A stretch of 64,000 nucleotides of DNA from a virus. Below are positions 11,912-54,966 of the stretch, piece after piece. Position 1 is the first letter of the stretch. Each line of letters begins with the position of its first letter. Where the stretch lies: positions 64,001 to 128,000 of IMG/VR virus record IMGVR_UViG_3300037247_000655, one strand, 5' to 3'. Position numbers and translations under genes: made by a program. Under the pieces are notes generated by a model, which saw nothing but the letters and a program-made list of their open reading frames with translations, did no database searches and was not told the origin of the DNA.

Positions 11912-11929
11912 CATTGGAAAGGTGATGTT

Positions 11930-29199: not shown

Positions 29200-29779
29200 A
29201 ACCACTCCTCATGAGTTTGGGACGTAAATTCCTGGTTCGCAACCATCTCTGTTTTCTACTGAGACCTAGCTTGTTGATCTGTCCATCCATCTGTGACACA
29301 ATCATATCCTTATCTTCTTTAGTCAAGTTAATAGACGACAAAATATCTGATAGCACGGAAAACGGATCAATGGTATCAACAGGTTCTACAAATAAAGTTT
29401 GCCAAGACTGTGGGTGGAGCATAGATCTAAGGACTTCTAGTTTAAGCCCTGTTATCTGTAGTTGTTCACAGATCTCGTGGTCATTCTTGCCTAAACCAGA
29501 AAGCATTTCAACCTGATGAATCTGTCTCTTTACTCTGCATGGTGCAGAGACCACGCACATCGCCCCCAAAGCAGTGTCTCTCATCGCACGAGCTATAGAT
29601 ACTATCGCATAGGCAGTGAAGTTATTCTTATTATGTCCCCCAGCTTTAATCTCTGCTAATTTGAGATGTCCAGCTTGTATATAATCTTCTGCATCCGCGC
29701 AACTATTGTTATAGGCAGCATCTATTTTTATAGCGAAATAAGATATAAACTTTTCTAGTGTCTGTTCTGCTTCCTGCAT
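29189..29779 (-). CDS. Sigma-70-like factor (regions 2-4, divergent)
   Basis: AEDYIQAGHLKL...NFTAYAIVSIARAMRD region-2-like; EICEQLQIT HTH-like. Confidence 0.65.
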   Translation of the reverse strand: MQEAEQTLEKFISYFAIKIDAAYNNSCADAEDYIQAGHLKLAEIKAGGHNKNNFTAYAIVSIARAMRDTALGAMCVVSAPCRVKRQIHQVEMLSGLGKNDHEICEQLQITGLKLEVLRSMLHPQSWQTLFVEPVDTIDPFSVLSDILSSINLTKEDKDMIVSQMDGQINKLGLSRKQRWLRTRNLRPKLMRSGYGI

Positions 29780-30207
29780 TAGAATGGGACACTGGGATCG
29801 TTAGTGGGAGCCTGAGCACTTGGTTCAGCTACTTTGGTCGCCTGTGCTGGTTGTGCTTCATCGCTGTTTTTAGCGGTCTTCACACACAACTGAAAATCAC
29901 GGACATTCAAAGAATAGGCGACCCTCTTTTGACCACTATCCTTGTCTTCCCAGCTATCTTGTTTAATATATCCATTGACGTAAATAGGCTGGCCCTTCTT
30001 GACTAGTTCAGACATCCTGGTTGCCTTAGCACTCCATACCTGCGCCCTCATAAAACAGGGTTCGTTCTGCCACTGATCATTATTATCCTTATAACTACGA
30101 TTAAAAGCCAGGTTGACAGTACAAACGGGCGTTTTCTTCTGTCCAACGAACTTTAGCTCCGGATCTGCAGTTGCAACACCAACACCATTAAAACTTAACT
30201 CTGCCAT
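29779..30207 (-). CDS. ssb: Single-stranded DNA-binding protein
   Basis: DPELKF...LAFNRSY...KKGQPIYVNGYIKQDSWEDK; C-terminal VPF tail. Confidence 0.95.
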   Translation of the reverse strand: MAELSFNGVGVATADPELKFVGQKKTPVCTVNLAFNRSYKDNNDQWQNEPCFMRAQVWSAKATRMSELVKKGQPIYVNGYIKQDSWEDKDSGQKRVAYSLNVRDFQLCVKTAKNSDEAQPAQATKVAEPSAQAPTNDPSVPF

Positions 30208-30233
30208 TACACATACCCTTCCAATAAATACAT
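30207..30233 (-). CDS. 8-codon uORF (MYLLEGYV) coupled to ssb
   Basis: AAGGAGGA RBS 7 nt before ATG; stop overlaps ssb start (TAATG). Confidence 0.4.
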   Translation of the reverse strand: MYLLEGYV

Positions 30234-30283
30234 TAGTTAGTCCTCCTTGTTATACGTCCAAAGAGGTATTCTGTTGCACAAAA

Positions 30284-32152
30284 TTATAATAATTTTTGTA
30301 TATTCTTAACAATAAAGCTGCCCTTTCTTTTATCCCCGTAAACAAGACAGATAACATCATCTTTACATAATCCCCTAAGCTTGGAAAATACGTCGGGGAA
30401 GACTACCGCGTGATCCACTGAATACGTAGAATCTGACATAGTCAAGAAACACATTGGCTTACCGGGATTCTTACCTCTTTTTGTTTTAGTATGTTTCACA
30501 CTATCTATTATGACACACACAACAATATCATCCTGATTAGTAGCCTTAGCTATATCTAGGCAGGTATGTGTGGCAAGTGTTTGGTCTGCATCGTCGGCCT
30601 GAGAACAAGAAAGGGCGATTCCAAGAAAATACTTCTCCGCAGTAGCATTAGCCATGTTTGTATCCTTCAGTGGACTTTCTGTCATGGCGGCTTTCCTGGC
30701 CATCATTGTCCGTCTAGCATCACTGGCACACGGTGGTTTGACGACAATATCTCGATATCCATTGTCTAGCATTAGTTTTTCTAATTTCTTCTTAGTCCGT
30801 CCCCCTAGTTCGGACAACCACGACACTTTCTCTTCACTTGAAGTATATACAAATTTACTGTCCCCATCTGTGATTCCGTCAAAAGCAACATCGGCTTGGT
30901 CCAAGTATTCCTGTGTAGCTTTTACCAATTCACCCTTGGTCATTTGCTTGATAGTTTTTGTTTTGCATCCAGCAGGCTGGGACATTTGTAGTAATATTTC
31001 CTGTGTAGTCATCTCACCAAGTTCCAGTTGATTGAAAAAATAAACTTTCTCTTTACCGGTTAGACCCTTTACTTCTACTTTTTTGCCAGATTCGTCATGA
31101 ACAGAAGTCCCCAGTATTACTTCAAGTTCTCTGACCATCTCACTACGCTCCATACCGTAGCAATCGCACGCACCTGACTTAATTAAAGCTATTCCAACAT
31201 TTCTGTGAAAATCAGGGACAGAGGCCAAAAAGCCACCCCAAGTTCCCAAACATGGACTAGATACTTTTAAAGGGTCCATTCCTGGCGTTTCTGTGGCCGC
31301 TGAGACGATCTTCTTGATAGCCGAGGCACCAACACCCCTAATATGCGCCAGGCCAAAAGCTATGCCATTCTTTGTTTTTTCTGCCATCGTAAAATGTGTG
31401 TTTCCACTTCTGATGTCAGGAGGTAGAATTTCAACACCGAATAACCTGGCATCCTGTACTAATTTGTAAATCTCCTCCTTAGGATCACCCTTATAACTAG
31501 AATATGTAAGGTAACTTGTGAAGAACTCTCTAGGAAAGTGGCACTTTATCCAAGCAGTTTGGTATGCAATCAGACCATAACTTACAGCATGGCTTTTATT
31601 AAAACTGTAGCGTTGACATTTTTCAATCCAACCAAAGATTTCTTCAGCTACTTCTAAGTCAATCTTGCCATATTCTTGGGCACCTTTGATAAATTTAGAC
31701 TTTACTTTAGCCATAAGCTTAGAATCCTTTTTACCTATAGCTTTTCTCAGCGTATCGGCACTTTCGGGACTAAGACCAGCCAAGTCGGTAGCTATTCTCA
31801 GCGCTTGCTCCTGATACACCATCTGGGCGTGAGTAGATTCTAATATCGGTTTTAAGGCGGGATGTAGATAAGTTATTTTTTTCTTTCCAAACTTAACGTC
31901 GACATAGGCTTGACTGAGCCCACTTTCAAGTGGACCTGGACGTAAAATACTCACTAACGCAGCCAATTCTTCTATACTATCGGGCTTTAATTTCTTTGAC
32001 CAATCTTGACCAAGATTTTTTTCAAGCTGGAAGACTCCAACAGTATTACCACTAGCCAGAAGCCTCCATACGGCAGGGCAATCCAAGTTGATGTTGTTGA
32101 TATCGAACTTACCCCTGTCTACGCGACATTTACAATTAGCGAACTCTATCAT
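30284..32152 (-). CDS. dnaE: DNA polymerase III alpha, C-terminal half (fingers, HhH, OB)
   Basis: TVGVFQLE, ILRPGPLE, MVYQEQ, YSFNKSHAVSY, LPPDI, GLAHIRGVG, LIKSGACD, EKYFLG, OB fold MCFLTMSD..AVVFP. Confidence 0.92.
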   Translation of the reverse strand: MIEFANCKCRVDRGKFDINNINLDCPAVWRLLASGNTVGVFQLEKNLGQDWSKKLKPDSIEELAALVSILRPGPLESGLSQAYVDVKFGKKKITYLHPALKPILESTHAQMVYQEQALRIATDLAGLSPESADTLRKAIGKKDSKLMAKVKSKFIKGAQEYGKIDLEVAEEIFGWIEKCQRYSFNKSHAVSYGLIAYQTAWIKCHFPREFFTSYLTYSSYKGDPKEEIYKLVQDARLFGVEILPPDIRSGNTHFTMAEKTKNGIAFGLAHIRGVGASAIKKIVSAATETPGMDPLKVSSPCLGTWGGFLASVPDFHRNVGIALIKSGACDCYGMERSEMVRELEVILGTSVHDESGKKVEVKGLTGKEKVYFFNQLELGEMTTQEILLQMSQPAGCKTKTIKQMTKGELVKATQEYLDQADVAFDGITDGDSKFVYTSSEEKVSWLSELGGRTKKKLEKLMLDNGYRDIVVKPPCASDARRTMMARKAAMTESPLKDTNMANATAEKYFLGIALSCSQADDADQTLATHTCLDIAKATNQDDIVVCVIIDSVKHTKTKRGKNPGKPMCFLTMSDSTYSVDHAVVFPDVFSKLRGLCKDDVICLVYGDKRKGSFIVKNIQKLL

Positions 32153-32192
32153 ACTACATTATACCTCTAACTAAACGATTTGTTCCATGTTT

Positions 32193-33125
32193 TTACAATA
32201 TAATATCAACAGAAAAAAATTGTCCCTTTATATCTTGCCATATATTATGAGACAATCCTCCGTCAGATTGTATTGCATAGTAATTATTATGTAACTCGTA
32301 TCCGGCTGATGCTATTTTATTAGTTTGTGCATCATTATGGATAGCTTGTTCGCACACATCAAGTAGGTCTGATAAATCTTGCTTGACAGACAAGTAATGC
32401 ACATCTGGTTCCATACAGTTAAGCCATCGAACATCTTGTAGACAACATGACACCACAGCAGAACCGACACCAAGGGTCTCGAACATACGATAGGTTAACG
32501 GACTATTGCCCGGCATACATAGCGATAGCAGTGATTGATTTATGGTTCTGAGATAGAAGCTCCTTGGACGATGACCAATTTCTACACCGCTAATATCTCT
32601 CGGTTCAGTCCCACCCTCTTGCCCAACAATACCACCAACGAACCACGGTTGACTTTTCAGGATTTCGCACGCACGGATTCTTAGGTTGTCTTTTGTACTC
32701 TGTGCTCCTGTTGGCAATCCAAAGAAACACGCCTTGGGCTTCTTTGTCGATGGTTTAGGTAAACCACCAATCAGAAATGGATGTACCGTTATCATCTTAT
32801 CCAGTATCCGTGGATCATAGATGGCAAGGTTATTATCCCACTGTATTTTTGCGAAAGCAGATACTTTATCGATTAATTCATCTGGCAGACCGTCGAGTTT
32901 GAATACATTCAAGTCTCCTAAAGATACAAGAACTATTTGACCACGAAAAGCCAATATTTCATCGACGATAAACTGGTCCAGAGCGTGAGGCCATATGCAG
33001 TCCACAAACCATATATCTGCGTCATTCCTGTTAGTTAGCGTATGTCCATATCTTTGGAGGGTTTGCAGTAAAGCGTACATTCTTGGTGGTGTAGCCTTGT
33101 GGATTGCAAGTGTGCGTATCTTCAT
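32193..33125 (-). CDS. Glycosyltransferase (GT90/CAP10-like, GT-B)
   Basis: FFGLPTG...LRIRAC; LCMPGN...TYRMFETL; PDVHYLSVKQDLSDL. Confidence 0.65.
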   Translation of the reverse strand: MKIRTLAIHKATPPRMYALLQTLQRYGHTLTNRNDADIWFVDCIWPHALDQFIVDEILAFRGQIVLVSLGDLNVFKLDGLPDELIDKVSAFAKIQWDNNLAIYDPRILDKMITVHPFLIGGLPKPSTKKPKACFFGLPTGAQSTKDNLRIRACEILKSQPWFVGGIVGQEGGTEPRDISGVEIGHRPRSFYLRTINQSLLSLCMPGNSPLTYRMFETLGVGSAVVSCCLQDVRWLNCMEPDVHYLSVKQDLSDLLDVCEQAIHNDAQTNKIASAGYELHNNYYAIQSDGGLSHNIWQDIKGQFFSVDIIL

Positions 33126-33140
33126 TATCTTATCCCCTAA

Positions 33141-33833
33141 TTATTCGAATGTGTATCCAAATCTATTAACAATGTATTTATCCATTTTCTCAACCGATTG
33201 TCTAAGCTTGGCGTCATAATACTCTTGATACCTGCCATGTTTAGAAGTATTCACCTTCGCCATTGTTGCTAGAGTGTTTTTCTGTTGTTCTGTTATTCCA
33301 ACAGTGGTATCTGCCAGGAAATTAGTTAGGTCTTCTCTAAGGTTTTCGGTACGGCACAAATGAATATTAAATACCATATCATCTGTTATGGACTTGGTTT
33401 TCAATGCTTTGAATACCACAGCTTGATTACGACAATAACTTTGTATATAATAGTATGTGTAAATTCCTATCCCAAGCCTATTGATTAATCCAAAATCTAT
33501 GTTATGGACTTTGGTATTCAAATTGGCAATCTTACTCATGAATTCAACAAAGTTTGTTTGTTTGCCATTGGGATGTAATACTTTAAAAGGCCCTTTTAAA
33601 GCTTCTGTTCTCTGAGTACTAGCATACCAGGATACATACCAATCCCACGGATTACGGATTGTGCCCAGTATAGGTTTCTGTCTATATCTCTTTGGGATAT
33701 CACATGCTTTGTCATGAACTATTCCATTGTATTTGGCGTTCGGTATGTTGTTAGTCAGATATTCTCGAATAAATGATCCTCCAGTTTTTTGAAGATGTAT
33801 ACAAATAAAATGTGGTGTGACAATCATTTGCAA
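33141..33833 (-). CDS. Sulfotransferase family protein
   Basis: 5'-PSB IHLQKTGGS; 3'-PB IRNPWDWYVSWY; RTENLREDL; YQEYYD; FGYTF. Confidence 0.88.
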   Translation of the reverse strand: MQMIVTPHFICIHLQKTGGSFIREYLTNNIPNAKYNGIVHDKACDIPKRYRQKPILGTIRNPWDWYVSWYASTQRTEALKGPFKVLHPNGKQTNFVEFMSKIANLNTKVHNIDFGLINRLGIGIYTYYYIQSYCRNQAVVFKALKTKSITDDMVFNIHLCRTENLREDLTNFLADTTVGITEQQKNTLATMAKVNTSKHGRYQEYYDAKLRQSVEKMDKYIVNRFGYTFE

Positions 33834-34729
33834 ATTCCTTGTACTTGATTCAGAAGCTCTACCACGCGATCACTATAAGTGGGACATCTATCAAAACCGC
33901 ACTTACGTATTTTTTCCCTCTCATCATCGTGGTCGCAATAATAATCTATTGTTGTTTTCAGTGAGTTCATGTCGTGTCGCGGGAATACGACCAACTCTTC
34001 CCCAATTACAAATTCCTGCTCCATACCAACTGTTGCTGGATGTAACAAGAATCCACCGCGACCACGTTGTTCGTATAGACGATTACTCCAATAATAATTG
34101 CCAGGTAACGAATCACCAACTACAACCTTTGTCGACCTTAGTAATTTATTTAGCTCTAACCCACGAATTTGGTCGCACGGGTTTTCAGATGCGCCAAAGA
34201 CCTTGAATTTCTTCCCATAAGTGTCTTGCAGGAAGTTTACTAATTTCTTGCGATACTCGTTGTACACACTGCCGACAAAGATAATATCACAATCAACAGC
34301 GATAGGGTCTACCCATACACGATCGGGAGCGTGAAGGCCTTGTCGTAAGGTGATGTGGTCAACTCCAAACTGAGCCTTCCACTGATCGTCGCACCCACCA
34401 TCAGTTGTGCAAACTAGGTCTGACAAATATAGTTTGCGTTTTCTTATTATGGTTTGTGCCCTGTCGAGGTAGAAGAGTCTGTCGAAACTCCAGTGTACCA
34501 CCAGAATATTCTGTTGATTTAACCACGGCAGTAGTATTCCAAAATAGTCAGCCCCTTTGCCACACAACACGAAGTCTGGTTTGTTGCTGGTGATTATCTG
34601 CTTAATCTTAGTCAGGGCTGTTTCTAGAGGCACTTTGGTCACATTGATCCCTAGTTCGTTGAATGCCGTTGTTATGTAGTTGCCGCTAGAGAAGAAGTGG
34701 TCAAACTTATCGATATATATAATGTTCAC
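33824..34729 (-). CDS. CgeB-like glycosyltransferase (GT-B)
   Basis: DIIFVGS...YWSNRLYE..GRGGFLL..EREKIRKCG; GTG start. Confidence 0.8.
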   Translation of the reverse strand: MNIIYIDKFDHFFSSGNYITTAFNELGINVTKVPLETALTKIKQIITSNKPDFVLCGKGADYFGILLPWLNQQNILVVHWSFDRLFYLDRAQTIIRKRKLYLSDLVCTTDGGCDDQWKAQFGVDHITLRQGLHAPDRVWVDPIAVDCDIIFVGSVYNEYRKKLVNFLQDTYGKKFKVFGASENPCDQIRGLELNKLLRSTKVVVGDSLPGNYYWSNRLYEQRGRGGFLLHPATVGMEQEFVIGEELVVFPRHDMNSLKTTIDYYCDHDDEREKIRKCGFDRCPTYSDRVVELLNQVQGICK

Positions 34730-34768
34730 AATAACATACCTCCACAAAACTGTCCTGTGCAATTCTAA

Positions 34769-35497
34769 TTAAGCAGGCTTCTTCCACAATGCACGGACGT
34801 ATCTCTGCCCCTTGTCTCCACTGAGTTTCCACTTAGCTACTTCTTCCATACCACATCTCTCGCGCAGTATGTCCAGTGCTTTGTATTCGAATTCTGTCAT
34901 ATGTCCCGCTGGGCTGAAGCGTATCAACTCGGAAGCGTTCTTAATTGGAACTTCGATATGGATATGGCCATTCGGCTTCAGCATCTTTACAGCTTTGTCC
35001 ATTGATTCAAGGGGGTTAATAACATGCTCAAGTGTGTTCCAGAACACTACCAAATCGAATTTATTATCAACTGCAAATGGGTCATCTTCCACAAAACCAT
35101 GAAAAATATCTAAGCCATAATTATGTCTTGCCCATGCAATGGCTTGCCAACTTAATTCGTTACCGTATACTTTCCATCCCTTTGATTGGGCAATGTGCAT
35201 TACAAAACCTGCTGCTGCTCCTACATCATAAAGTTTACCTACAGTAACGTGTGGTTTAATGAGATCCAATTGTTCAGAAGCCTGGGTAAGACGCTTCTTC
35301 CTGGTTTCTGAATTGGTACAAGCAGTAAGCATCATATTTGCTAACGACTGCTTCAAAGCAGCCTTGGACGGCACTTCAGTATTCCAATGCACCTGGCACA
35401 TTTTACATGCAAAAAATTTATCAACCACCGGACCAGACAATTTACTTCCGCAAAATCTACATTTCATAATTTTTGTATGACTAATCACTTTATCCAT
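34769..35497 (-). CDS. Class I SAM-dependent methyltransferase with N-terminal Zn ribbon
   Basis: CRFC..CKMC; LYDVGAAAG; FDLVVFWNTLEHV; LKPNGHIHIEVP. Confidence 0.88.
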   Translation of the reverse strand: MDKVISHTKIMKCRFCGSKLSGPVVDKFFACKMCQVHWNTEVPSKAALKQSLANMMLTACTNSETRKKRLTQASEQLDLIKPHVTVGKLYDVGAAAGFVMHIAQSKGWKVYGNELSWQAIAWARHNYGLDIFHGFVEDDPFAVDNKFDLVVFWNTLEHVINPLESMDKAVKMLKPNGHIHIEVPIKNASELIRFSPAGHMTEFEYKALDILRERCGMEEVAKWKLSGDKGQRYVRALWKKPA

Positions 35498-36246
35498 CTC
35501 CCAGCTTCACGAATTTTCCTAACCAAACTCTGGTCTTTTGGCCATACTTTTCTGTCTGGCCTACCGTAATTGATTACATCAATTATTACACCCATAGCGT
35601 CACAAGCATGGACAAAAACCGACGAAGATAAAACTCTATACCTAGCCTCACGGGCTAAAACAAAAGAAAAATTGATGTCTGGATCAGCGCAGTAGTGGTT
35701 GCCACCAAGCCCTGTATCTATAACTGGTAAATCTGGTAAGTGTTTTTTGATCCAATCTGCGCAATCCCAATCGTGTGTGGTATGGAATTCTATTTGTGTA
35801 TGTCTGTATATGTACCCGTTTGGGTAGCAAGACGAAACAAGGTCCATGGCTCTTGCTTCGGTATCCGGGGGAATAAAAACTTCAAGTTGATTGTCGTCAG
35901 GTGTAATACCGCATTCCTTCCAGTTGGTCGCAATTTTACATCCTTTTATGATTGATTCGTGCAAACAACTTATGGACATATCATAATGTTTGGATAGTCG
36001 CTCGAATTGTAGAATATTCAATTCCTTTTGACACTCGAATCCTAAATCGGATCTCCACGGGTTGTCAATATTTACAAAACCTTTTACATATGGACATTCT
36101 CTCAATAGGCCAGAATTGAAAACTTCAGGTCTACACATCAAATCAATAGTATGTCCTTGTTTATAAAGATGTCTCAAAATTGGTGTCAATAAGACAACAT
36201 CCCCCAATCCGTGCCAGTATAGAATGATTACTTTCTTATTTTTCAT
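35485..36246 (-). CDS. GT9 (heptosyltransferase)-like protein
   Basis: HGLGDVVLLTPILRHL GT9 N-terminal motif; SSSVFVHACDAMG. Confidence 0.7.
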   Translation of the reverse strand: MKNKKVIILYWHGLGDVVLLTPILRHLYKQGHTIDLMCRPEVFNSGLLRECPYVKGFVNIDNPWRSDLGFECQKELNILQFERLSKHYDMSISCLHESIIKGCKIATNWKECGITPDDNQLEVFIPPDTEARAMDLVSSCYPNGYIYRHTQIEFHTTHDWDCADWIKKHLPDLPVIDTGLGGNHYCADPDINFSFVLAREARYRVLSSSVFVHACDAMGVIIDVINYGRPDRKVWPKDQSLVRKIREAGRWIK

Positions 36247-36250
36247 ATAT

Positions 36251-36811
36251 CTAAACCCTTAAGATAACCTCAATAAAAGCTTCTGCTCCCATCTGAGTTT
36301 GGTCAACGTTACCCAGTGAATAATCATAGTCCGTATCTACTATTTTTACAGACAATATGTCAACATCAAACTGTTTCAACCATGATTGAATGTGAATAGA
36401 TTTGGGCAACTGACTGCATGTCTTCATGGTGAAAGACCATAAATGACTTTTGTTAAAAGTACTGGGCCACTTGTCGTGTTCATATAATGTTTCGTCGGGG
36501 ACAGTAAAGAAAACAATCCCGCCCGGCCTTACAATTCGTATCCACGATTTAAGTGCTTGAGCAGGATCGCCGATGTGTTCTAGGCAATTCGATGAATAGG
36601 CGAAGTCAACACTGTCATCTTTCATTTCTCCCATCGTTTGAGCTTCATGGGCACTGCTATGGTGCAACTTATCATAAGGGATCACGTTGCCGTCAATAAT
36701 TTGCAGGATGTCTTTACCACATCCTATGTCTATTCCATTACCACAAAGATACCTATGAAAATATCCAGCTGCTAAGCGACGAGGATATCCTTTTCTTGTT
36801 TCGTTACTCAT
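36251..36811 (-). CDS. SAM-dependent methyltransferase (type 11)
   Basis: GIDIGCG; DFAYSSNCLEH; WIRIVRPGGIVFFTVPD. Confidence 0.9.
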   Translation of the reverse strand: MSNETRKGYPRRLAAGYFHRYLCGNGIDIGCGKDILQIIDGNVIPYDKLHHSSAHEAQTMGEMKDDSVDFAYSSNCLEHIGDPAQALKSWIRIVRPGGIVFFTVPDETLYEHDKWPSTFNKSHLWSFTMKTCSQLPKSIHIQSWLKQFDVDILSVKIVDTDYDYSLGNVDQTQMGAEAFIEVILRV

Positions 36812-37494
36812 AATTCCTCCTCTTGTACATGATGATATGGTGCCCACTCTGGTACAATTCGTTCACTATAAGATGGTGAGTCTAGAATATGCCGTATATA
36901 CACGCTACTTTGTATTCGTTGACTGACAGCCATTATACTTATTATTCCTTGAAATGTTGTGACGTGTTGGGCCATGCTTACAACACCAAGTGCTTCCAAT
37001 AAAGATGTTTTATTGGTTAAATTAATAACGTTATCGCCTTTTATCTTCTTAGCTGTCTCACTTGTTCCTAAAACTACAACTGGGTAGCATGAATTTTTAA
37101 TTGTTGTATCTATGATTTTTTCAGTCAATATTCTTTTTTGATCTGGTCTACCAGATCGTGGATTCAAGACAACATAATGTTCTGGTAAATCAGATACTTT
37201 AGGGAAAACAAAGTTTGGGAAGACACACCAGTCGTCTGGGGAAGATAGTATTTTACCAAATTTCTTATGAGGTGTAAAAGCAGAGTATATTCTTGGGTTT
37301 ATTGTGTCTGGTTTGTCTACAAACTCCACACGTATATTTGGCATTAACGAGTAAATTTGTCTAATCAATCCTTGCCATTTTTTGTTATCTGTGTGGTGTC
37401 TACATAGAATATGCTCTATCTTCGCAACGTGATATAGAATACATAAATTTATATATGTATCTCCAATTGTACCGCTACATCCGTAAGTTTTCAT
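36808..37494 (-). CDS. GT9 (heptosyltransferase)-like protein
   Basis: GTIGDT; YVVLNP; VINLTNKTSLLEALGVV. Confidence 0.7.
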   Translation of the reverse strand: MKTYGCSGTIGDTYINLCILYHVAKIEHILCRHHTDNKKWQGLIRQIYSLMPNIRVEFVDKPDTINPRIYSAFTPHKKFGKILSSPDDWCVFPNFVFPKVSDLPEHYVVLNPRSGRPDQKRILTEKIIDTTIKNSCYPVVVLGTSETAKKIKGDNVINLTNKTSLLEALGVVSMAQHVTTFQGIISIMAVSQRIQSSVYIRHILDSPSYSERIVPEWAPYHHVQEEEL

Positions 37495-38455
37495 CTTGTA
37501 ACTCCTTGAGCGAACACACGGCAGTACCGGTTTTACCCACGACAATTCCTGCCGCCAGGTTGCTTAATTTGACAGCTTGTTGCAAATTGTAGTCATTGGC
37601 GACACAAGCTGCAAAAGTGCTTAATACAGTATCTCCTGCTCCTGTTACATCAAGTATCATTTGTGGATCATCTCGATTGATAGATATGTGTGCTGGGAAA
37701 ATATGTGACTGTCCTTCTTGATCAAGTAAGAAAATACCATCATGCGACATAGTGATTATAACCGCTTTTAAGTTGAATTTTTTCTTAATGGCGTGAGCCA
37801 AATCTTGTACTGTCTCATTATTGTCAGACACTACCAGTTGCTTAGCTTCAGCGAGGTTAGGTGTAATACAAAATACATCACAGAACAATTCACTATTGAC
37901 TGGCTTGATGTCACATATAATTGGACATACAAATGACGATCTGATTACTTTCATTACTTTATCCGTAACAGTTCCTTTAGCATAATCAGACACAACTATT
38001 ACATCAAAGTGTTGCTGTTGACTAAGTTTCTTTAGATGTTCTATCATTGTAGACTCATGTCTTTTTCTGTGCGATAAGGTTTTTATTGTTGAATCATCAT
38101 CGTATCGTACCATATGCTGTCTATTTGCAATAATACGTGTTTTAGAGATAGATGGAGCAGTTGAAAAAATTAAATTATTACATCCAATCAGATGTATCTT
38201 CAATTGTTGTTTTAGTTGATTTCCTGTGTAGTCGTCACCAATATACCCTACAAGTTTAACATTACATCCGAATGATTTAAGATTTACCGCCACATTTGCT
38301 GCTCCACCAGCAGCGACATTTTCTTTAGATATAAGAACAACAGGAACAGGTGCTTCTGGAGATATACGGGTAGCTGTACCATACTTGTAAATATCAAGCA
38401 TAATATCTCCAATCACTAAAATTCGTGCATCATTGAATGTCAATGATTGTGTCAT
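37475..38455 (-). CDS. rfaE1: Heptose-7-phosphate kinase (RfaE/HldE kinase domain, PfkB family)
   Basis: ILVIGDIMLD.Y.YG...RISPEAPVPV, GGAANVA.NL, SDYAKG, TPNLAEA, DVTGAGDTV, NLAAGIVVGKTGTA. Confidence 0.93.
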   Translation of the reverse strand: MTQSLTFNDARILVIGDIMLDIYKYGTATRISPEAPVPVVLISKENVAAGGAANVAVNLKSFGCNVKLVGYIGDDYTGNQLKQQLKIHLIGCNNLIFSTAPSISKTRIIANRQHMVRYDDDSTIKTLSHRKRHESTMIEHLKKLSQQQHFDVIVVSDYAKGTVTDKVMKVIRSSFVCPIICDIKPVNSELFCDVFCITPNLAEAKQLVVSDNNETVQDLAHAIKKKFNLKAVIITMSHDGIFLLDQEGQSHIFPAHISINRDDPQMILDVTGAGDTVLSTFAACVANDYNLQQAVKLSNLAAGIVVGKTGTAVCSLKELQDENLRM

Positions 38456-40086
38456 GCCTGTCTCCTCACAACAGAAATACCAAAGGTATAAAGTCCTCTT
38501 ACAGACCTCTCTTTTCTGTTTGCAATATCGACGTTGCTGAAGTCGGTGTCACCGACTCTTACAACCCCCATTTGCTTTAACGGTTTGAGGATTCGTTCTT
38601 CAAACGTCTCTGGGGTGTAAACCCTAGAATCTGTATGGGAACCAACAGGTCTATCCAAAACGATGGTCCTGTTTGCGTCTGGATACTCGATATATTTGTC
38701 GTAGAAATCCGTAGAGATCACCATAACGCCACCCGGTTTCAGATAACGAGCGAGATTCTGTATTGCCTTTGTATCTTCGTCAATGTGTTCAATGACACTT
38801 AGGTTAGTTATCAAATCAAATTGACCTTCTAGATCTTGGTCGAATTCTCTTAGGTCTCCGATGATACTCTTTACGCCAAACTTATCTCCAGTCTCATCTC
38901 TATAAGATCCATCAGAAACATCAATTGTTGTAACATTGTATCCCCTGTGTGACAGATAATATGGGAATACCGAGCGGGCACTACCTACATCTAGCGTCTT
39001 GCCTCTGATTCTGTGTCCTGAATATAACAAACTATAAGCATATTCGAACCACTTCAATTCATTACACTCTAACGAGTGTTCTATTCCAAATAATTTAATG
39101 TCTGCAAACAAACTCTCTATCTCAGGCAATTCCCTTTCTCTCTTGTCATAAAGCTTAGTCAACACTTGAGGCTTGGCGGTTTTATTCTTGACACACCCAA
39201 CCCTTGGGACATCGCACCAATTACACAGCCCATAATGACGACAAGTAACAGCTTTGTCTGGTACTGGCTTGAAGTTTTTAACATTACAGACCGGTCCAAT
39301 ATTGTAGTACATCTTATAATGACAGTGATAGTAGTCACCATTAGGCCCAATAATCAAGCTTCTTCTAGGATGAAAACACTGGGCTTCTTTTCCAGTTGCC
39401 TGTCCGCATATGTGTCTATAAGCAGCCAAGTCTGTTAAACCACATCTTTCCCCTACTCGCTTTAAGTCGTGATAATTTTCATCTGGCATCAAGTTCCCTT
39501 GATCAAAAGGAGCATTGAAACCATTTGCGTCATCATGAAATCCCAAGAACGAACCTTCGGTCATAGAAATATTTGCACTAACCTTTTTTATCTCATTTCC
39601 GTATTGTTCCATGACTCCTGGCGCATATACGAATGATGTTTGATCAACAAAGTATGAACCCTTTCTCCATTTTGCAATGACAGCTAAGTATTCATCTGCG
39701 GTAATGTGATTGGGATGAAATGTTGTGTTAATTCTAAGTGTCGAAGTTGGATGAACTTTGAACCTCTTGTCGAAATCGGGGTCTTTATAAAATGGACTTT
39801 TGCAGTTGGTCGTCATTGTGATGTTGTAGTTCTTCAGACCGTTTATGATTTCAACAATATCTGGATGTAGAGTCGGTTCTCCACCAATGATGGACAATTT
39901 TTGTCCATGCTCGTGTTCAACTCCGTTCCACCACTCCAGGATTTCCTTTCCACTCATTTCCTTTTGTGATACTCTACGACCTCTTCCATTGAGAATACAG
40001 AATGGGCATCCAGCACTACAACGTAGTGTGATCATATGCGCCCAATAACACCTCTGGTGATTATAATGTGATGGCAGCTTAGTCAT
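38452..40086 (-). CDS. Radical SAM (with Cys-rich SPASM/twitch-like region) fused to class I methyltransferase
   Basis: CSAGCPFC; GGEPTLHPD; IGPNGDYYHC...CRHYGLCNWC; LDVGSA..FDLITNLSVIEH..LKPGG. Confidence 0.85.
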   Translation of the reverse strand: MTKLPSHYNHQRCYWAHMITLRCSAGCPFCILNGRGRRVSQKEMSGKEILEWWNGVEHEHGQKLSIIGGEPTLHPDIVEIINGLKNYNITMTTNCKSPFYKDPDFDKRFKVHPTSTLRINTTFHPNHITADEYLAVIAKWRKGSYFVDQTSFVYAPGVMEQYGNEIKKVSANISMTEGSFLGFHDDANGFNAPFDQGNLMPDENYHDLKRVGERCGLTDLAAYRHICGQATGKEAQCFHPRRSLIIGPNGDYYHCHYKMYYNIGPVCNVKNFKPVPDKAVTCRHYGLCNWCDVPRVGCVKNKTAKPQVLTKLYDKRERELPEIESLFADIKLFGIEHSLECNELKWFEYAYSLLYSGHRIRGKTLDVGSARSVFPYYLSHRGYNVTTIDVSDGSYRDETGDKFGVKSIIGDLREFDQDLEGQFDLITNLSVIEHIDEDTKAIQNLARYLKPGGVMVISTDFYDKYIEYPDANRTIVLDRPVGSHTDSRVYTPETFEERILKPLKQMGVVRVGDTDFSNVDIANRKERSVRGLYTFGISVVRRQA

Positions 40087-40879
40087 CTAAAATTCCTTTG
40101 TCTAGCAAAGTATCAACATTTTGTACCACTTCTTTTGGAGATGGCACCCTATTCTGACAAATAAACTCTACCGGAGTGTTAAACGGATTCCATAGTTTCT
40201 TGTATCTTTTTTCGAGTGTGTGGTGTATGGATGCTATCCATGTAACATGAGGACACCCACATAAACTTGCAAGATGTATGGGTCCGCTACTTGGTCCGAC
40301 AACACACTTTGCTGAGGATATTGCGCTGCACTGTTTTTCCAGTGATTGGCCTCTCAAATCTTCTGCACCATCTGGACAATAATTATCGACACCTCCGAAA
40401 CAAGCAACAGATAAACCCCGCGATATTAGTATTTCAACCAAATGTTGACATTTACCAAAGGGATATTGTTTACCTGATATTATTTTCCCATCAATACGTT
40501 TAATAGGGCGAAATGCACATAAAACATCAGCTACATACCCTGGAGATTCTGGTGACAAGTTTCTCCATAATCGCTTGGTCGATATTCTTTCTGGTTCATC
40601 ACTGTGTTTGGCAAATTCTTTGTGGGGCGACAATGTTTTATCTGCATTTATTATTGGATAATCACCCAATAGCTGGCCATCACAATAAGAAGTACCAATA
40701 GTATCAAGTGGTATAAATTTGTCTGCAAATTCATATAAGTATTGTGACCCTTTTGGCGCTGCGACTATTACATGATTATATTTTTTAGCATGATATCTCA
40801 CCAATGGATTATAAAAACATAATTCCCATCCAAATTCCCCAACCCAGGGTTTACAATATAATGCTGTCATTCTTTTCAC
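40079..40879 (-). CDS. GT9-like glycosyltransferase
   Basis: GEFGWE; AEDLRGQSL; CVVGPSSGPIHLASLCGCPHV. Confidence 0.78.
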   Translation of the reverse strand: MKRMTALYCKPWVGEFGWELCFYNPLVRYHAKKYNHVIVAAPKGSQYLYEFADKFIPLDTIGTSYCDGQLLGDYPIINADKTLSPHKEFAKHSDEPERISTKRLWRNLSPESPGYVADVLCAFRPIKRIDGKIISGKQYPFGKCQHLVEILISRGLSVACFGGVDNYCPDGAEDLRGQSLEKQCSAISSAKCVVGPSSGPIHLASLCGCPHVTWIASIHHTLEKRYKKLWNPFNTPVEFICQNRVPSPKEVVQNVDTLLDKGILDD

Positions 40880-41505
40880 CCTCTCGTTGGAGTTGTTAAT
40901 GCCTTATTAATTGACCAATGACCCCTAACGAGTCGCTCTCGTATAGTCCTTTTGTTAATACCGGTTTCTTCTGCCCAAGCCGAGATGCATTGCGTTTTTT
41001 TGTTAAACGTAATCATATAATTACTACGTTTATTTCTGCTATTTTCTTTGGGTGTTGTCCATCGACAATTTTCTTTACAATAATTTCCATCGTTGTCGAT
41101 TCTATCTATCTGCAAACCAATTGGGACTTCACCCATATCATCTAAGAAATTCTTAAATTTTTTCCATCGATCACAGATAATGATCCCTCTGCCACCATAA
41201 TTCTTCCAATGCTGATCATTTTGGTTGGTACATCTTTGTATAATGCTTGACCATACATTGTAAGTTTTTCTTGTTCTACCAGCATCGTTTTTTGTATGGC
41301 CGTGTTTAACATTGTTACCTTTTCTACGTAGACATCCGCAGCTTTTAGTATTACCTCTTTTCAAACTATTCCCACAAATTATCTTTTCATTGCCACAATC
41401 ACATTTACACAGCCATTCATAATGACCATCACTACTTTTCCCTGTCGGCTTAATCACGACTAATTTATTAAATTTCTTACCAGTTAGATCTATAAAATTT
41501 GACAT
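40876..41505 (-). CDS. HNH-type free-standing homing endonuclease
   Basis: DLTGKKFNKL..WLCKCDCG..KSCGC..YGGRGI..IDRIDNDGNYCKENCRW; paralog of 294..935. Confidence 0.87.
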   Translation of the reverse strand: MSNFIDLTGKKFNKLVVIKPTGKSSDGHYEWLCKCDCGNEKIICGNSLKRGNTKSCGCLRRKGNNVKHGHTKNDAGRTRKTYNVWSSIIQRCTNQNDQHWKNYGGRGIIICDRWKKFKNFLDDMGEVPIGLQIDRIDNDGNYCKENCRWTTPKENSRNKRSNYMITFNKKTQCISAWAEETGINKRTIRERLVRGHWSINKALTTPTRG

Positions 41506-41511
41506 AATATA

Positions 41512-42249
41512 TCATCTTAAAGTATGACCATCTCTAGTATATATTGTCACACCATTTCTATCAATGACCCTATTGACGTTTAGATGATCCATCAACATAT
41601 TGAGGTGATATTGCATACGTTTATTCCTGTGATTAAAATAGTTTTGATCTCTAATTGGCATATGCCCAGTGACTATACCAGGAGTATACACAATATTCAA
41701 CTTCCCTAAAGCACGACAAAAAAACGGAATATGATCACATGTCTTGAACAAAGCACTCCATCCACCAATTCCCCTGATCTTTTCTGTTCTACCCATCCAG
41801 AACTGAAGAACAATATCCCATAGATCAAAGTTTCTTAGTCGACTGCGCGGATTTGGCTTAAAAATAAGCGCATTGTCTTCTATGTGGAGTGAACTTTGAT
41901 ACTGGGGGTGGCCATCAACTTGTCCTCCTACAATGTCGATTTCTGTATTGTTTTCGAGAATTTCCAACCATTTTGATAATTGTGTCCTGTCATTAAAAAT
42001 AAAATCATCATCAAGAGTTACTACATACGGCGTATCAACCTTACTAAGTGCAAGATTACGGCCAGCCGAAACACCACTATCGTACGGCATTAATAGATGT
42101 TCTGCTCCTGTAATAGAATGTGGTTTAGCACTGTCATCTGCTACAATTATTCTAATATCAGGATACATCATTCTGATGCTATAAATCAGCCTATCTACAC
42201 ATCTAGGTCGTTCAAATGTTTTGACTATCAGAGTTACTTTGTCTCGCAT
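41512..42249 (-). CDS. Glycosyltransferase family 2
   Basis: VTLIVKTFERP; IIVADDS; GVSAGRN; VTLDDDF (DxD). Confidence 0.88.
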   Translation of the reverse strand: MRDKVTLIVKTFERPRCVDRLIYSIRMMYPDIRIIVADDSAKPHSITGAEHLLMPYDSGVSAGRNLALSKVDTPYVVTLDDDFIFNDRTQLSKWLEILENNTEIDIVGGQVDGHPQYQSSLHIEDNALIFKPNPRSRLRNFDLWDIVLQFWMGRTEKIRGIGGWSALFKTCDHIPFFCRALGKLNIVYTPGIVTGHMPIRDQNYFNHRNKRMQYHLNMLMDHLNVNRVIDRNGVTIYTRDGHTLR

Positions 42250-44609
42250 TCTTGCACCTCTTTGAATTCTTCGTCTAACACAGAATCTGCTGATTCTCCA
42301 TTAATTAGATCCATCGCTTTCCATAGCTTATCCAACGCTACGACCCCCAGAAAATCGAATTTCACCGCCCCCATAGCTTCTGCATCAGACATCTCTAGAC
42401 CGACAACTCTATCTTTATTTTTGGCATCATAAACCATTGGTACAAGTTCTTCTATGGGCCTATCTGCTATAACGACACCAGCAGCATGTTTTGATTGTGA
42501 TTTTTTAGTACCTTCGATTCTCATAGCCTGATCAAACAACGGCTTATACCACTCGTAAGCATCTTTTACTTGTTCAATATGGTGTATCGCCCATTGTAAG
42601 ATACCATAATCGTCACCATGATCTTCTCTTGCTTGCCTTAACTCATCAGATATAGACGCCTCATCAGGTATATGACGTGTAATATCGTTACATAAATCAT
42701 GGGGAGTCATACATATATCATCTGCGTTCTTTCCCTCTTTGATTGATTTCACTTTCATAAGATGCTTGACAGTATCTGGATGAGCACGGAACACTTCTTT
42801 CAAAGCTGCTTTACCCTGGAGTCTTCCGAACGTAATCATTTGCGCAACGTATTCTTCACCCCATCTCTTTTTCAGATACGTAATGACTTCGTTGCGAAAC
42901 ACAACCCCTATATCCGTATCAATATCAGGAAGGCTAATATGACCCTTATGGATAGTTACATCTTTGTTGGTGTCCAATTCACAAGATTCAACTATTGTTA
43001 TACCAAGACCATGTGCCAAATGTGAGTTAGATGGATTAGTAGACGGCTTCTCTTTGATCATATCAGCCAAGTACATCCACATACGAGAATTATTGGCATC
43101 AATCCATTCAACTTCCTTCCTCATCATATCCGTAAACACCACGGGGTCAAATGGATCTTTACAATATTGTTCTATTCGTCCAGCCAGGTGAAGAGAGACA
43201 TATTTCCTGTCTGAGTCTATATCCCTTGTGTGTAATAGTTCAAAGTTATCAGACATCCAAGACATGAAACTAGTATGCCCGACATCAAAGTGAGGTGGTA
43301 TGTTACGACTCATATTATAGAATCTTTCAAAATACAAACCGTATTTGATCGGATCTATTCCTGTTATTCCTGTTAGATAATTGATAAGTGATCCTGCTCC
43401 AGAACCTCGTCCCTTGCCTCTTGGTCCGTTGGATTCGTCTACGAACTTACATGCATCCCAAACTATAAGAAAATAATCTGCTAATCCGGCCTCTTGGATG
43501 ACTATGAGTTCCCTTTTTAATCTTTTCCAATATGTAGCCTTTTGTGATTGATCAAGATGGGACAACTTTTCCTTAGCACCTTCTATACACAGGTGTTTGA
43601 GATATTCTATAGAATTCATGCCAAGTTTTTTAGACTCATCATTTGTAAAAATTGGCAAATACGGATTATGGCCAAGCGATGAGTATTCTATACGATCTGC
43701 TATGTCTAATGTCGCTTGCAGTTCTGCTTCCGTAAATGTCTCCCGCATTTCTTCGTATGACGGTATATAGTACTTATCAGAAACAAAAAAGTCCATTACA
43801 TCTTGGCCGGTGGAGATTTTGTAGTCTTGCGCCTCTTTTGTTGTATGGAGACTTGCATACAAAAGCAATCGTTGGTCCTCAGCATCTTCTTGTCTACAAT
43901 AATGGGCATCAATGGTGGCGACTGTGGGAACACCAGTTTCTATACTTAGCTCACGGAGACATTCGACAACCACAGTTTGAATTCCCATCGATTCGTCCTG
44001 TAATTCTAAATAATAATTGTCTTTTCCGAATATCTCTATATGCTTTTGAATTATTGCTTTGCCAACTTCTAACCAATCTGGTTTTAGATACTTTCTAGCC
44101 TCAGCAACATTGTGATTACGACCAGCCATGATAGCTTCTTTAAAATCTATAAACAGCTCCATAGATAACTCCCCTGCGATGCACGCAGTCAGGAATATGA
44201 GATTTCTACGTTTTGCGAATTTAGCTATGCCAGTCAGATCTATTCTAGGTTTTCGATAGAAGTGGTCCGGTTTATTAGTTTCAGATACCAACCGCATTAA
44301 ATCTTCGATTCCTTGATCGTTTTTAGCAAGAACTATTAAGTGATGTCTTTTGTTGTTGGCGTTGTTTTTTATAGTTGGGTCTTGTTCACAGACATATAGT
44401 TCACATCCGATAATGGGTTTGATTTTTGCTTTTCGTGCTGCATCATAGAATGTCTTCATACAGCTTATATTTCCATGGTCTGAAATTGTGCAAGCAGGAA
44501 GTCCCAACTCAACACATCTGTTAACTATGTCTTTTGGTGAACAAAGTCCGTCCAATAAACTAAAGTATGAATGTAAATGAAGTGGGACATATGTTTTTGT
44601 ATTATTCAT
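42234..44609 (-). CDS. dnaE: DNA polymerase III alpha, N-terminal half (PHP, palm, thumb)
   Basis: LHLHSYFSLLDG, SDHGN, IGCE, TIDAHY, GRGSGAGS, FERF, PDIDTD, SKHAAGVVI, KFDFLG; ends shortly after KFDFLG. Confidence 0.93.
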   Translation of the reverse strand: MNNTKTYVPLHLHSYFSLLDGLCSPKDIVNRCVELGLPACTISDHGNISCMKTFYDAARKAKIKPIIGCELYVCEQDPTIKNNANNKRHHLIVLAKNDQGIEDLMRLVSETNKPDHFYRKPRIDLTGIAKFAKRRNLIFLTACIAGELSMELFIDFKEAIMAGRNHNVAEARKYLKPDWLEVGKAIIQKHIEIFGKDNYYLELQDESMGIQTVVVECLRELSIETGVPTVATIDAHYCRQEDAEDQRLLLYASLHTTKEAQDYKISTGQDVMDFFVSDKYYIPSYEEMRETFTEAELQATLDIADRIEYSSLGHNPYLPIFTNDESKKLGMNSIEYLKHLCIEGAKEKLSHLDQSQKATYWKRLKRELIVIQEAGLADYFLIVWDACKFVDESNGPRGKGRGSGAGSLINYLTGITGIDPIKYGLYFERFYNMSRNIPPHFDVGHTSFMSWMSDNFELLHTRDIDSDRKYVSLHLAGRIEQYCKDPFDPVVFTDMMRKEVEWIDANNSRMWMYLADMIKEKPSTNPSNSHLAHGLGITIVESCELDTNKDVTIHKGHISLPDIDTDIGVVFRNEVITYLKKRWGEEYVAQMITFGRLQGKAALKEVFRAHPDTVKHLMKVKSIKEGKNADDICMTPHDLCNDITRHIPDEASISDELRQAREDHGDDYGILQWAIHHIEQVKDAYEWYKPLFDQAMRIEGTKKSQSKHAAGVVIADRPIEELVPMVYDAKNKDRVVGLEMSDAEAMGAVKFDFLGVVALDKLWKAMDLINGESADSVLDEEFKEVQECETK

Positions 44610-45555
44610 TATCTACTCCCGGTTTTCCAATTGCTAGCTGCTGTTCGTATGTCAACTTGGCATATTTGTTTTTCACAAAGTCTCCTCCAGAAGTATGTAA
44701 ATCGCTCCACACCCTATCACAGATACCATTGCGACCGAAAGAACACATCTTACAAGACCAGTGCTTATTTCTTCGTATCAACGTATCGTTCTTTACAGTT
44801 CTTAAAAAGTCATAGAGAAACTCGACGGTACCAATAAGATCATTGCGAGATAATGCAATTGTTATTGGGCCACCACTATTAGCATAAAAGAAGGTGATAA
44901 TTATATTCTTGTATTGTGGATAAAGAAAGAATGCTGCTAGGTGGTATAGTCTAGGTTGTACTTCTCTCATCAGAACTTTTTCGTCAATTGGTTCCTGTGT
45001 ATGAAAATTTGTTCTATTACCAGATTTCCAGTCTATTATTTCTAAAGTATCTTTGTCTATTTCACGGGTTAGATCAATGAAACCTCGCACAGTAAACTGT
45101 TTCTCTTCTCCTTCATTATTTGAGCATTTCCATTCTTCTCCAGGCATCTCCAGAGAAAACCATTGTTCTGCTTCTAATACATCTACTAAATAGGGATTAT
45201 AAAATTCATCAGCAAGTACGGTCTCAAGAGCAACTCTACACTTCTTGAAGTCAGCAGCTTCCTTTAGGGCACCAGTTTCTCTATCTACACGAGTAGTAAC
45301 TTTCCTGATCTGTATTTCTGGAGAATTTTGAGTGTGCTCGTCCCATGCTCTATTCAGCAACCACATCGGATCAACATTGGTTTTGCCACGTTTTTTTAGC
45401 CGAGCCATCCATTCCAGAGCCTGATGTATGATGCTACCCTGAAGAGCCGCCTTACCAGTTTTAGATTCTAGACCTAAAAGGTAATGCAGATAATAAGCGA
45501 ATTGGCAATGATTATATGTCCCAATTGCACTAGAGCTACATCTTACAATTTTCAT
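44602..45555 (-). CDS. PD-(D/E)xK exonuclease (Cas4/AddB-like)
   Basis: SSSAIGTYNHC..GSIIH..RGFID..IIDWKSG..QPRLY..CKMC..C. Confidence 0.85.
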   Translation of the reverse strand: MKIVRCSSSAIGTYNHCQFAYYLHYLLGLESKTGKAALQGSIIHQALEWMARLKKRGKTNVDPMWLLNRAWDEHTQNSPEIQIRKVTTRVDRETGALKEAADFKKCRVALETVLADEFYNPYLVDVLEAEQWFSLEMPGEEWKCSNNEGEEKQFTVRGFIDLTREIDKDTLEIIDWKSGNRTNFHTQEPIDEKVLMREVQPRLYHLAAFFLYPQYKNIIITFFYANSGGPITIALSRNDLIGTVEFLYDFLRTVKNDTLIRRNKHWSCKMCSFGRNGICDRVWSDLHTSGGDFVKNKYAKLTYEQQLAIGKPGVDNE

Positions 45556-54408: not shown

Positions 54409-54441
54409 AACAATCTCCTTTACACCTAATTATACCTAAAA

Positions 54442-54966
54442 CTACGTCTTTTGTTCCGCAAAAGTTCCCATTTTCTTTGCGAAATTTCCAAGATCTTTAC
54501 GGTTTTTCTCTAAACGATCTATCTCCGGAACAGTGTCCGGAGCATGAACACACATTTTGAGATGTCGTTTAATTTCTTTAACGACTTCATCTCCAAAAGG
54601 CGAAGCCTCTCCCGCATTTTTAACAGCACGAGTTAACAAACTCAACATACTGCCGCGTTTCATGAAAGCGCGTATCAATAGTAAACCAGCTCCAACGAAA
54701 ATAATTGCCATAACACTAGTTCCGATAACAACCCATCCAGCACCACTGTAATTAATGGTTTCTGCTTGTACACTTTTCTTCCAAATAGATAGTTCTTCTG
54801 CAACTGTCTCAAGATTACCCATGTCCATACGGATTCCTTGTATATCTGCTTTAAAAGCTTCTGGGGCCATGCAGCCTGGCAAGACACAAAAAGATATGAG
54901 AATCATCAATATGACCATGAATGCACCATGTGTCCATAGTATCATCGCTTTCGTTGTTTCTTGCAT
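54442..54966 (-). CDS. Membrane protein / putative lipoprotein
   Basis: Hydrophobic N-terminus ending LPGC, second TM helix WVVIGTSVMAIIFVGAGLLLI. Confidence 0.6.
   Translation of the reverse strand: MQETTKAMILWTHGAFMVILMILISFCVLPGCMAPEAFKADIQGIRMDMGNLETVAEELSIWKKSVQAETINYSGAGWVVIGTSVMAIIFVGAGLLLIRAFMKRGSMLSLLTRAVKNAGEASPFGDEVVKEIKRHLKMCVHAPDTVPEIDRLEKNRKDLGNFAKKMGTFAEQKT

Follow-up and report, generated by a model that had tools for sequence, protein, structure and literature searches.

What becomes of a replicative DNA polymerase when its gene is cut in two and the pieces lie 10 kb apart? The question is raised by a stretch of 64,000 nucleotides (the window; positions 64,001 to 128,000 of IMG/VR record IMGVR_UViG_3300037247_000655) in which dnaE, the gene for the alpha subunit of DNA polymerase III (Pol III alpha), is found as an N-half and a C-half. 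The source is an uncultured phage whose 165,526-bp record has direct terminal repeats, is rated complete and contains one copy of each half. Pol III alpha, the model replicase of bacteria, has been studied as a single chain. The best explanation for the locus, which we consider likely on account of the anatomy, conservation and co-inheritance of the halves, is that they would assemble into an active Pol III alpha of two subunits held together non-covalently.

The halves are two open reading frames (ORFs) separated by 10,082 nt, the N-half with a stop and the C-half with a start of its own (Table 1). Pfam matches in the N-half are PHP (PF02811, 8e-40) and DNA_pol3_alpha (PF07733, 5.5e-67); those in the C-half are DNA_pol3_finger (PF17657, 1.6e-47), starting at profile position 19, and HHH_6 (PF14579). 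By alignment to the solved structure, N-half residues 6–770 correspond to Taq DnaE 6–636 (686–770 to Taq 553–636), while the C-half aligns from its residue 15, at Taq 642 and at E. coli alpha 583, the stretch of the E. coli protein covered being 583–902. An initial annotation, made without database searches, had described an N-half with PHP, PDIDTD and KFDFLG that stops about 36 aa after the last of these, and a C-half that takes up at DINNINLDC..VGVFQLE, the two being complementary and non-overlapping. The ORF list, Pfam and the translation agree on the former (PDIDTD is at residues 561–566 and KFDFLG at 750–755, and the protein ends 36 aa after KFDFLG). The latter is borne out by a C-half N-terminus of MIEFANCKC...FDINNINLDC...VGVFQLE and by the Taq and E. 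coli alignments, which abut within ∼5 residues.

Each half was confidently folded alone in AlphaFold2 (AF2) models, with predicted local distance difference test scores (pLDDT) of 90.1 for the N-half and 84.5 for the C-half. Foldseek alignments of the C-half model with the C-terminal regions of the M. tuberculosis, Taq and E. coli DnaEs, including the OB fold, spanned ∼625 columns at E ∼5e-21. All DnaE-type features are present, namely PHP, a palm with three Asp, and fingers/HhH/OB; only the single polypeptide chain is lacking. Domains, their order and catalytic residues equal those of single-chain DnaE (Taq 2HPI/3E0D/4IQJ; E. coli 2HNH/5FKU; M. tuberculosis 7PU7), from which the phage enzyme differs in being encoded, and presumably made, as two chains, in ∼30 extra residues at the cut, in a Cys-rich head on the C-half and in a 120-aa insert in the N-half. 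The insert is folded (pLDDT 72–95) and specific to the window's sub-clade, being missing from shorter N-halves of 610–650 aa.

Where does the break fall? The cut is in a surface loop directly past the first helix downstream of the third catalytic Asp, at about E. coli 574–582. In E. coli alpha the palm reportedly extends to residue 560 and the fingers begin at 561, limits said to have been drawn by Lamers and colleagues in 2006, and it is relative to these that we take the cut to lie, presumably, just past the palm–fingers junction. In place of about five surface-loop residues of Taq, the N-half has a 21-aa tail and the C-half a 14-aa head. Since alignment resumes after those ∼5 loop residues, essential residues are not missing at the breakpoint. 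The N-half tail has pLDDT below 50 for residues 775–791, its last 17 residues being predicted to be disordered, and is acidic, with a (D/E)(D/E)xVL(D/E)E-like sequence, in most relatives of the sub-clade. In the C-half head, C25 is invariant and C7 and C9 are at least 90% conserved among 44 C-halves; in the wider clade the head motif is F-x-CGC-x-F ... INLxCxKTW. This Cys head is specific to split forms, occurring neither in the contiguous homologue P0133 nor in the aligned stretch of E. coli alpha. It may be a docking element, perhaps metal-binding; for the acidic tail, too, any role is one that we infer.

The break divides the active site. The Asp triad and GSGAGS are in the N-half and the FNKSH fingers motif is in the C-half, so neither half has a whole site. 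Catalytic D562, D564 and D752 are invariant in 45 N-half homologues, as are the PHP ligands H11, H13, D20, H45, E70, H90, D234 and H236; all nine PHP metal-ligand positions match Taq and are invariant or at least 90% conserved. Across homologues down to ∼40% identity, the catalytic Asp residues, GSGAGS and FNKSH do not vary. The complete genome had no match to the PolA or PolB families (no PF00136 match), which leaves the split DnaE as the only polymerase detected. We propose that a first subunit would supply PHP, palm and thumb, and with them all three catalytic Asp and the whole PHP metal site, that a second would supply fingers, HhH domain and OB fold with the FNKSH motif, and that the two polypeptides would assemble without covalent joining.

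The initial annotation had called for related genomes to be compared at the breakpoint, and they have the same breakpoint with variable cargo. Close relatives were ten viral contigs with N-half identity of 73–79% (loci and contigs are cited by L numbers). The same break was found in every one reaching far enough, L004/L005, L008, L010, L011 and L012, and also in L007. Beyond these, the best 120 clusters in a collection of 5.8 billion proteins (49–84% identity) were almost all of 750–800 aa with PHP and DNA_pol3_alpha only and no finger domain; clusters of ∼1140–1160 aa among those 120 had the same domains plus an intein. An exhaustive search, for which 50%-identity representatives of at least 560 aa were counted (n = 138), gave 100 proteins that end no more than 70 aa past the D752 column and 31 that run on into the fingers. 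The tail was mostly 19–23 aa after the motif in motif-positive representatives. Short N-halves (610–650 aa, 41–46% identical) end at the same place, where contiguous P0133 reads through. A scan of viral contigs, seeded with a 5-sequence alignment, confirmed at least 571 contigs; 80 were fetched, and both halves were found in 66 loci (L014 and L016 counted in). The source of the window being a metagenome-assembled viral contig, an assembly chimera or a sequencing artefact at the junctions might be suspected. However, the same break recurs in independent contigs from many metagenome samples and in more than 100 protein clusters of several databases, leaving a negligible chance of artefact.

The halves have also travelled together. 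Pairwise identities of N-halves and of C-halves at 52 loci were closely correlated (Mantel r = 0.907, with 0/999 permutations as high), which argues against halves of different origin. In a FastTree phylogeny of the N-half region, which has SH-like (Shimodaira–Hasegawa-like) support only and uncertain deep branches, split forms fell in one clade of 106 rows (100 of them split; SH-like 98), with 32 unsplit rows apart. Nested inside the split clade were three small groups of truly contiguous DnaEs. Proteins of 881–1396 aa nested there had been expected to be exonuclease fusions; Pfam identified them as contiguous DnaEs with inteins.

Several observations weigh against the two-subunit polymerase. 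The tree requires at least four state changes, so there may have been re-fusion or repeated splitting, the split having arisen or reversed more than once. The tails at the break, only 21 and 14 aa, are short, and that of the N-half varies among relatives, L008 and L011 having short ones. A PF02768 search of the genome detected no clamp gene, leaving the replisome context incomplete. The lack of a detected clamp would also fit a split polymerase that is defunct, or whose halves have separate jobs as a PHP nuclease and a DNA-binding protein, while the host replisome copies the phage; the complete PHP metal site could act alone. Against this improbable account stand the invariance of the catalytic Asp, GSGAGS and FNKSH across homologues, halves that are always co-present and co-evolving, and phage DnaB and SSB encoded nearby with no other polymerase. 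As far as sequence goes, a heterodimeric Pol III alpha, as the initial annotation had proposed, is supported by the precise clade-wide break, the co-inheritance, the divided active site and the lack of any splicing signal, its subunits presumably assembling.

Could the halves instead be ligated after translation? Split inteins do this for the split DnaEs known so far, in the cyanobacterial genes (Ssp/Npu) and in three 'fractured' loci from metagenomes (Dassa et al. 2009, PMC2677866). As in the phage, DnaE is there in two genes, and the fractured loci have an endonuclease gene between the parts (PMC2677866). One can imagine that the N-half tail and C-half head together make up an unrecognised split intein of very small size or atypical form, as the F-A-N-C of the head loosely resembles the end of a C-intein (Asn) and a +1 Cys, and inteins are common in the dnaE family at other sites. 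The tails, however, total ∼35 aa, against 88–105 aa for the N parts of natural split inteins, plus a C part (PMC2677866). There is no N-intein of ∼90–105 aa, the Asn before Cys7 is not conserved (it is Lys in L004), and N-half tails of the wider clade, down to ∼12–20 aa, have no conserved Cys or Ser. Pfam found no intein or Hint domain in either half or at the junction, though it detects inteins elsewhere in relatives. The phage halves differ further from split-intein DnaE in their break site; the site before FNKSH, where the cyanobacterial proteins are split, is intact, with YSFNKSH contiguous inside the C-half. The claim that neither end has intein motifs and that the cyanobacterial site is uninterrupted thus stands, and we judge ligation by a split intein very improbable.

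True inteins do occur in these genes. In L011:7962-11405 an intein of LAGLIDADG type is in the PHP domain of the N-half, between IIG and CELY. An insertion between PGPLE and SGL in the C-half fingers, found in L010:20858-22180 and L011:18169-20997 and in frame in L011 (942-aa ORF), is probably an intein as well. Inteins therefore coexist with the intein-less split.

Rejoining at the level of RNA or DNA, by an intron or trans-splicing, by ribosomal bypass or by programmed excision of the intervening island, would be an alternative to two subunits. The intervening genes all share one strand and no minus-strand terminator was found between the halves, so one long transcript is plausible. Yet Rfam gave no match at E up to 1 over 29500–45500, the island is not flanked by direct repeats, and its HNH endonuclease is the only mobility-type gene found, no recombinase family having matched any cargo ORF. 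The stop of the N-half and the start of the C-half are both conserved, each half has a tail of its own, the C-half has its own promoter-like motif, and 10 kb with 12 ORFs is far past any known bypass. With signals of splicing and rearrangement absent, rejoining appears extremely unlikely, and two separate polypeptides remain our preferred reading.

What was the original content of the gap? In 62 of the 66 loci with both halves, a DnaQ-like RNase_T exonuclease gene (∼230 aa) stands after the N-half and before the C-half, and the halves are 850–1000 nt apart. The stop of the exonuclease gene and the start of the C-half usually overlap in this wider clade, and the C-half is predicted from that overlap to be translationally coupled to the exonuclease gene. 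The exceptions were L014 with a GT47-like gene, L082 with an HNH homologue, and L087 and L070 with gaps of 3.5–4.5 kb. A conserved micro-ORF of ∼60 aa, with a CC-containing, (I/L)SCC-like sequence, was seen between N-half and exonuclease gene in four translated loci (L016:11900-12100, L018:11900-12079, L038 and L050). Homologues of the gap exonuclease and of the micro-protein were not detected in the window's genome or its close relatives; the only RNase_T-type gene of the genome is distant from dnaE and has no BLAST similarity to the gap exonuclease.

The ancestral gap content was probably the DnaQ-like exonuclease gene, with the glycan island a derived replacement. The most economical history would have the exonuclease gap first, followed by gene loss and cargo accretion in the window's sub-clade. 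By its distribution over a very large clade of phages, aquatic in origin, the split is judged far older than the island, and the island and its HNH gene are not considered its cause. Derived in the window are the lack of a gap exonuclease, the 5–10 kb mosaic heptose/methyl/glycosyl cargo and a dedicated putative promoter for the C-half. Given intact PHP metal ligands, proofreading could be built into the enzyme, and the loss of the exonuclease gene would be consistent with this.

That twelve genes, an HNH endonuclease among them, lie between the halves was already clear in the initial annotation; we count 12 minus-strand ORFs, with a phrog_374 match for the endonuclease. The GT2 glycosyltransferase gene that comes first has a start overlapping the N-half stop by 16 nt. 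Cargo genes 3–12 encode mainly sugar-modifying and methyl-transferring functions (Table 1) and include four ORFs without an assigned family. The heptose-7-phosphate kinase and its neighbours resemble a phage pathway for a methylated heptose glycan. A thymidylate-synthase-like gene was not found, so from that side there is no support for a role of the cargo in DNA hypermodification. Base composition of the island is the same as that of its flanks.

The gap is far more variable than its surroundings. Over the whole clade its length goes from ∼0.9 kb, holding a single exonuclease gene, to 10 kb, holding 12 genes, and it is at least 5.0 kb in the loci closest to the window (distances in Table 1). 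In those same loci the neighbouring junctions varied little, at −7 to 821 nt for nuclease to N-half and 77–93 nt for C-half to SSB. When gap proteins were clustered, the window had almost all of its families in common with L007 only, and elsewhere the island was mosaic: two families adjoin the C-half in five loci and are not in the window, other blocks are common to L009/L010/L011 or to L008/L012, and several families of the relatives are also glycosyltransferases or methyltransferases. With mosaic content and variable length beside junctions varying by less than 0.9 kb, the gap behaves as a variable cargo slot, in line with the earlier suggestion of an insertion hotspot at the split point. 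In the window's sub-clade it would be a permissive slot in a replication operon, collecting mosaic sugar-modifying genes and HNH endonucleases.

How would a C-half so far from the N-half be expressed? The initial annotation had placed GGTATAAT 5 nt before the C-half ATG, and it is indeed there. It belongs to a bipartite motif, GGAACA-N17-TATAAT, found upstream of the C-half with the same spacing in L004, L008, L011 and L012. The form G(G/C)AACA-N16-18-TATAAT, also written as G(G/C)AACA-N16-18-(C/G)GTATAAT, had 15 sites genome-wide where shuffled sequences gave 2.6, and a Shine-Dalgarno sequence and start codon usually come next; sites from a generic scan for sigma-70 promoters and terminators were no more numerous than expected by chance. 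The motif is most likely a phage promoter, of a candidate class. Its −10 element ends 5 nt before the ATG, so the C-half message would be leaderless or nearly so. The promoter, which the C-half would have gained for itself, looks like an adaptation of the sub-clade to the long gap. Some sites of the motif elsewhere are 0–9 nt from a start codon, and leaderless mRNAs are possible there too.

In one relative an endonuclease gene has made a further break. Homologues of the HNH gene at 40876-41505 are in L004, L007, L009, L011, L012 and L082, at several positions around dnaE. The DnaE of L012:10001-12965 is in three pieces, its N-half being cut into ORFs of 456 and 312 aa by an HNH gene (11371-12030) homologous to that of the window, which is inside the ∼120-aa insert and has overlapping stop and start codons at its edges. 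This extra break is of the endonuclease-fragmented type known from Aeromonas phage Aeh1, whose NrdA-a/NrdA-b pair is split by the mobE endonuclease and has break-site tails essential for activity (Crona et al. 2011, PMC3045599). The main split of the phage dnaE is like Aeh1 NrdA in placing an essential enzyme in two non-covalent polypeptides (whose assembly here would be by analogy), with unique break tails and, in the window, a homing-type endonuclease gene among those in the gap. It differs in the enzyme, in being ancient and clade-wide, and in the gap, where instead of a single endonuclease there is either an exonuclease gene or as many as 13 cargo genes. In the window gap the HNH gene is one of 12, and most gaps of the wider clade hold the exonuclease gene and no endonuclease.

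Other replicative polymerases in two chains are of family B, not C, with unrelated folds and break sites. The gp43 of T4-related phages can be broken into two genes 2–3 kb apart (Petrov and Karam, as cited in PMC2677866), and DNAP-N and DNAP-C of PhiKZ form a stable 1:1 complex by cryo-EM (PMC13648687). Closer in family is a 'minimal' Pol III alpha module encoded as two stand-alone proteins by group 2.2 jumbo phages (Iyer et al. 2021, PMC7824862). That form has the core nucleotidyltransferase and template-binding part only, has no PHP, occurs with PolB and has its parts encoded far apart, whereas the window's DnaE is full-size, is the only polymerase found and has its halves collinear in one operon. 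Our full-text literature search turned up no account of a full-size DnaE that lacks an intein and is cut at the palm–fingers junction. MT837784, the best GenBank phage match, had been suspected of adjacent split ORFs, but has a contiguous 1173-aa gene. DnaE is annotated as two ORFs in three cultured actinophages, MH576972 (Gordonia Beyoncage gp64/66), NC_070765 (Mycobacterium Onyinye gp82/84) and MH153807 (Rhodococcus Peregrin gp99/100); a small gene is between the ORFs in Beyoncage and Onyinye and the ORFs are adjacent in Peregrin, and the break sites differ from that of the window.

Is the split a selected design? Palm and fingers subunits might dock by way of the Cys head, possibly a zinc knuckle, and the acidic tail; the space between the genes might be a privileged expression slot, filled first by the proofreading exonuclease and micro-protein and later by sugar cargo; and the leaderless promoter might set stoichiometry or timing. 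We hold this fuller account to be doubtful. If the two-chain family is real, palm and fingers can be separate subunits, the cut is a natural, tolerated site for engineering, and the sequences assembled here are a set in which to study assembly of a composite active site. One family would provide an evolutionary series of contiguous gene, exonuclease gap, 5–10 kb mosaic cargo gap and three-piece gene made by an HNH endonuclease. A replication operon can be a landing pad for glycan-modifying genes, and the window is a further case of enzymes encoded in pieces.

Table 1. Coordinates of features in the window, and N-half to C-half distances at the window and related loci
Feature	Coordinates	Strand	Evidence or value
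dnaE N-half: PHP, palm, thumb; 791 aa	42234..44609	-	Pfam, Taq alignment, AF2 model
Helical insert of ∼120 aa (residues 436-556) directly before PDIDTD, N-half	42942..43304	-	gap at Taq position 458
Acidic N-half C-terminal tail, residues 771-791, no counterpart in single-chain DnaE	42237..42299	-	Taq alignment ends at 770
dnaE C-half: fingers, HhH (beta-binding) domain, OB fold; 622 aa	30284..32152	-	Pfam, E. coli alpha alignment, AF2, Foldseek
C-half head, residues 1-25, C7-x-C9 ... C25	32078..32152	-	conservation in 44 C-halves
Promoter-like motif GGAACA-N17-TATAAT	32158..32186	-	−10 element ends 5 nt before C-half ATG
Sister site of bipartite motif	54429-54457	-	13 further sites in genome
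Cargo gene 1: GT2 glycosyltransferase	41512..42249	-	PF00535, 1.7e-12
Cargo gene 2: free-standing HNH homing-type endonuclease	40876..41505	-	phrog_374, 2.5e-68
Cargo genes 3-12	32193..40879	-	Pfam, NCBIfam
Radical SAM-methyltransferase fusion	38452-40086	-	Pfam
RfaE-domain-I-like heptose-7-phosphate kinase	37475-38455	-	NCBIfam TIGR02198, 1.2e-84
Two methyltransferases	36251-36847, 34769-35497	-	Pfam
GT1-like (GT-B-like) glycosyltransferase	33824-34762	-	Pfam
Weak GT-like (GT-B-like) gene	32193-33125	-	Pfam
PD-(D/E)XK nuclease gene, directly upstream of N-half	44602..45555	-	PF12705, 8.7e-19; phrog_69 exonuclease
SSB gene, directly downstream of C-half	29779..30207	-	phrog_44, 5.3e-28
N-to-C distance, L004/L005			5.0 kb
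N-to-C distance, L011			6.8 kb
N-to-C distance, L012			7.8 kb
N-to-C distance, L010			8.5 kb
N-to-C distance, L008			9.7 kb
N-to-C distance, L007			>10 kb, island syntenic with window
N-to-C distance, window			10,082 nt

The genes around dnaE are those of a replication neighbourhood. The PD-(D/E)XK nuclease gene adjoins the N-half in all relatives, and the DnaB gene is slightly farther upstream of dnaE. At 26278-29205 on the minus strand is a gene for a 975-aa glycosyltransferase of GT1/GT4 type, an unusual intein host, with a LAGLIDADG intein at approximately residues 105–510; the copy in L004 is without the intein.

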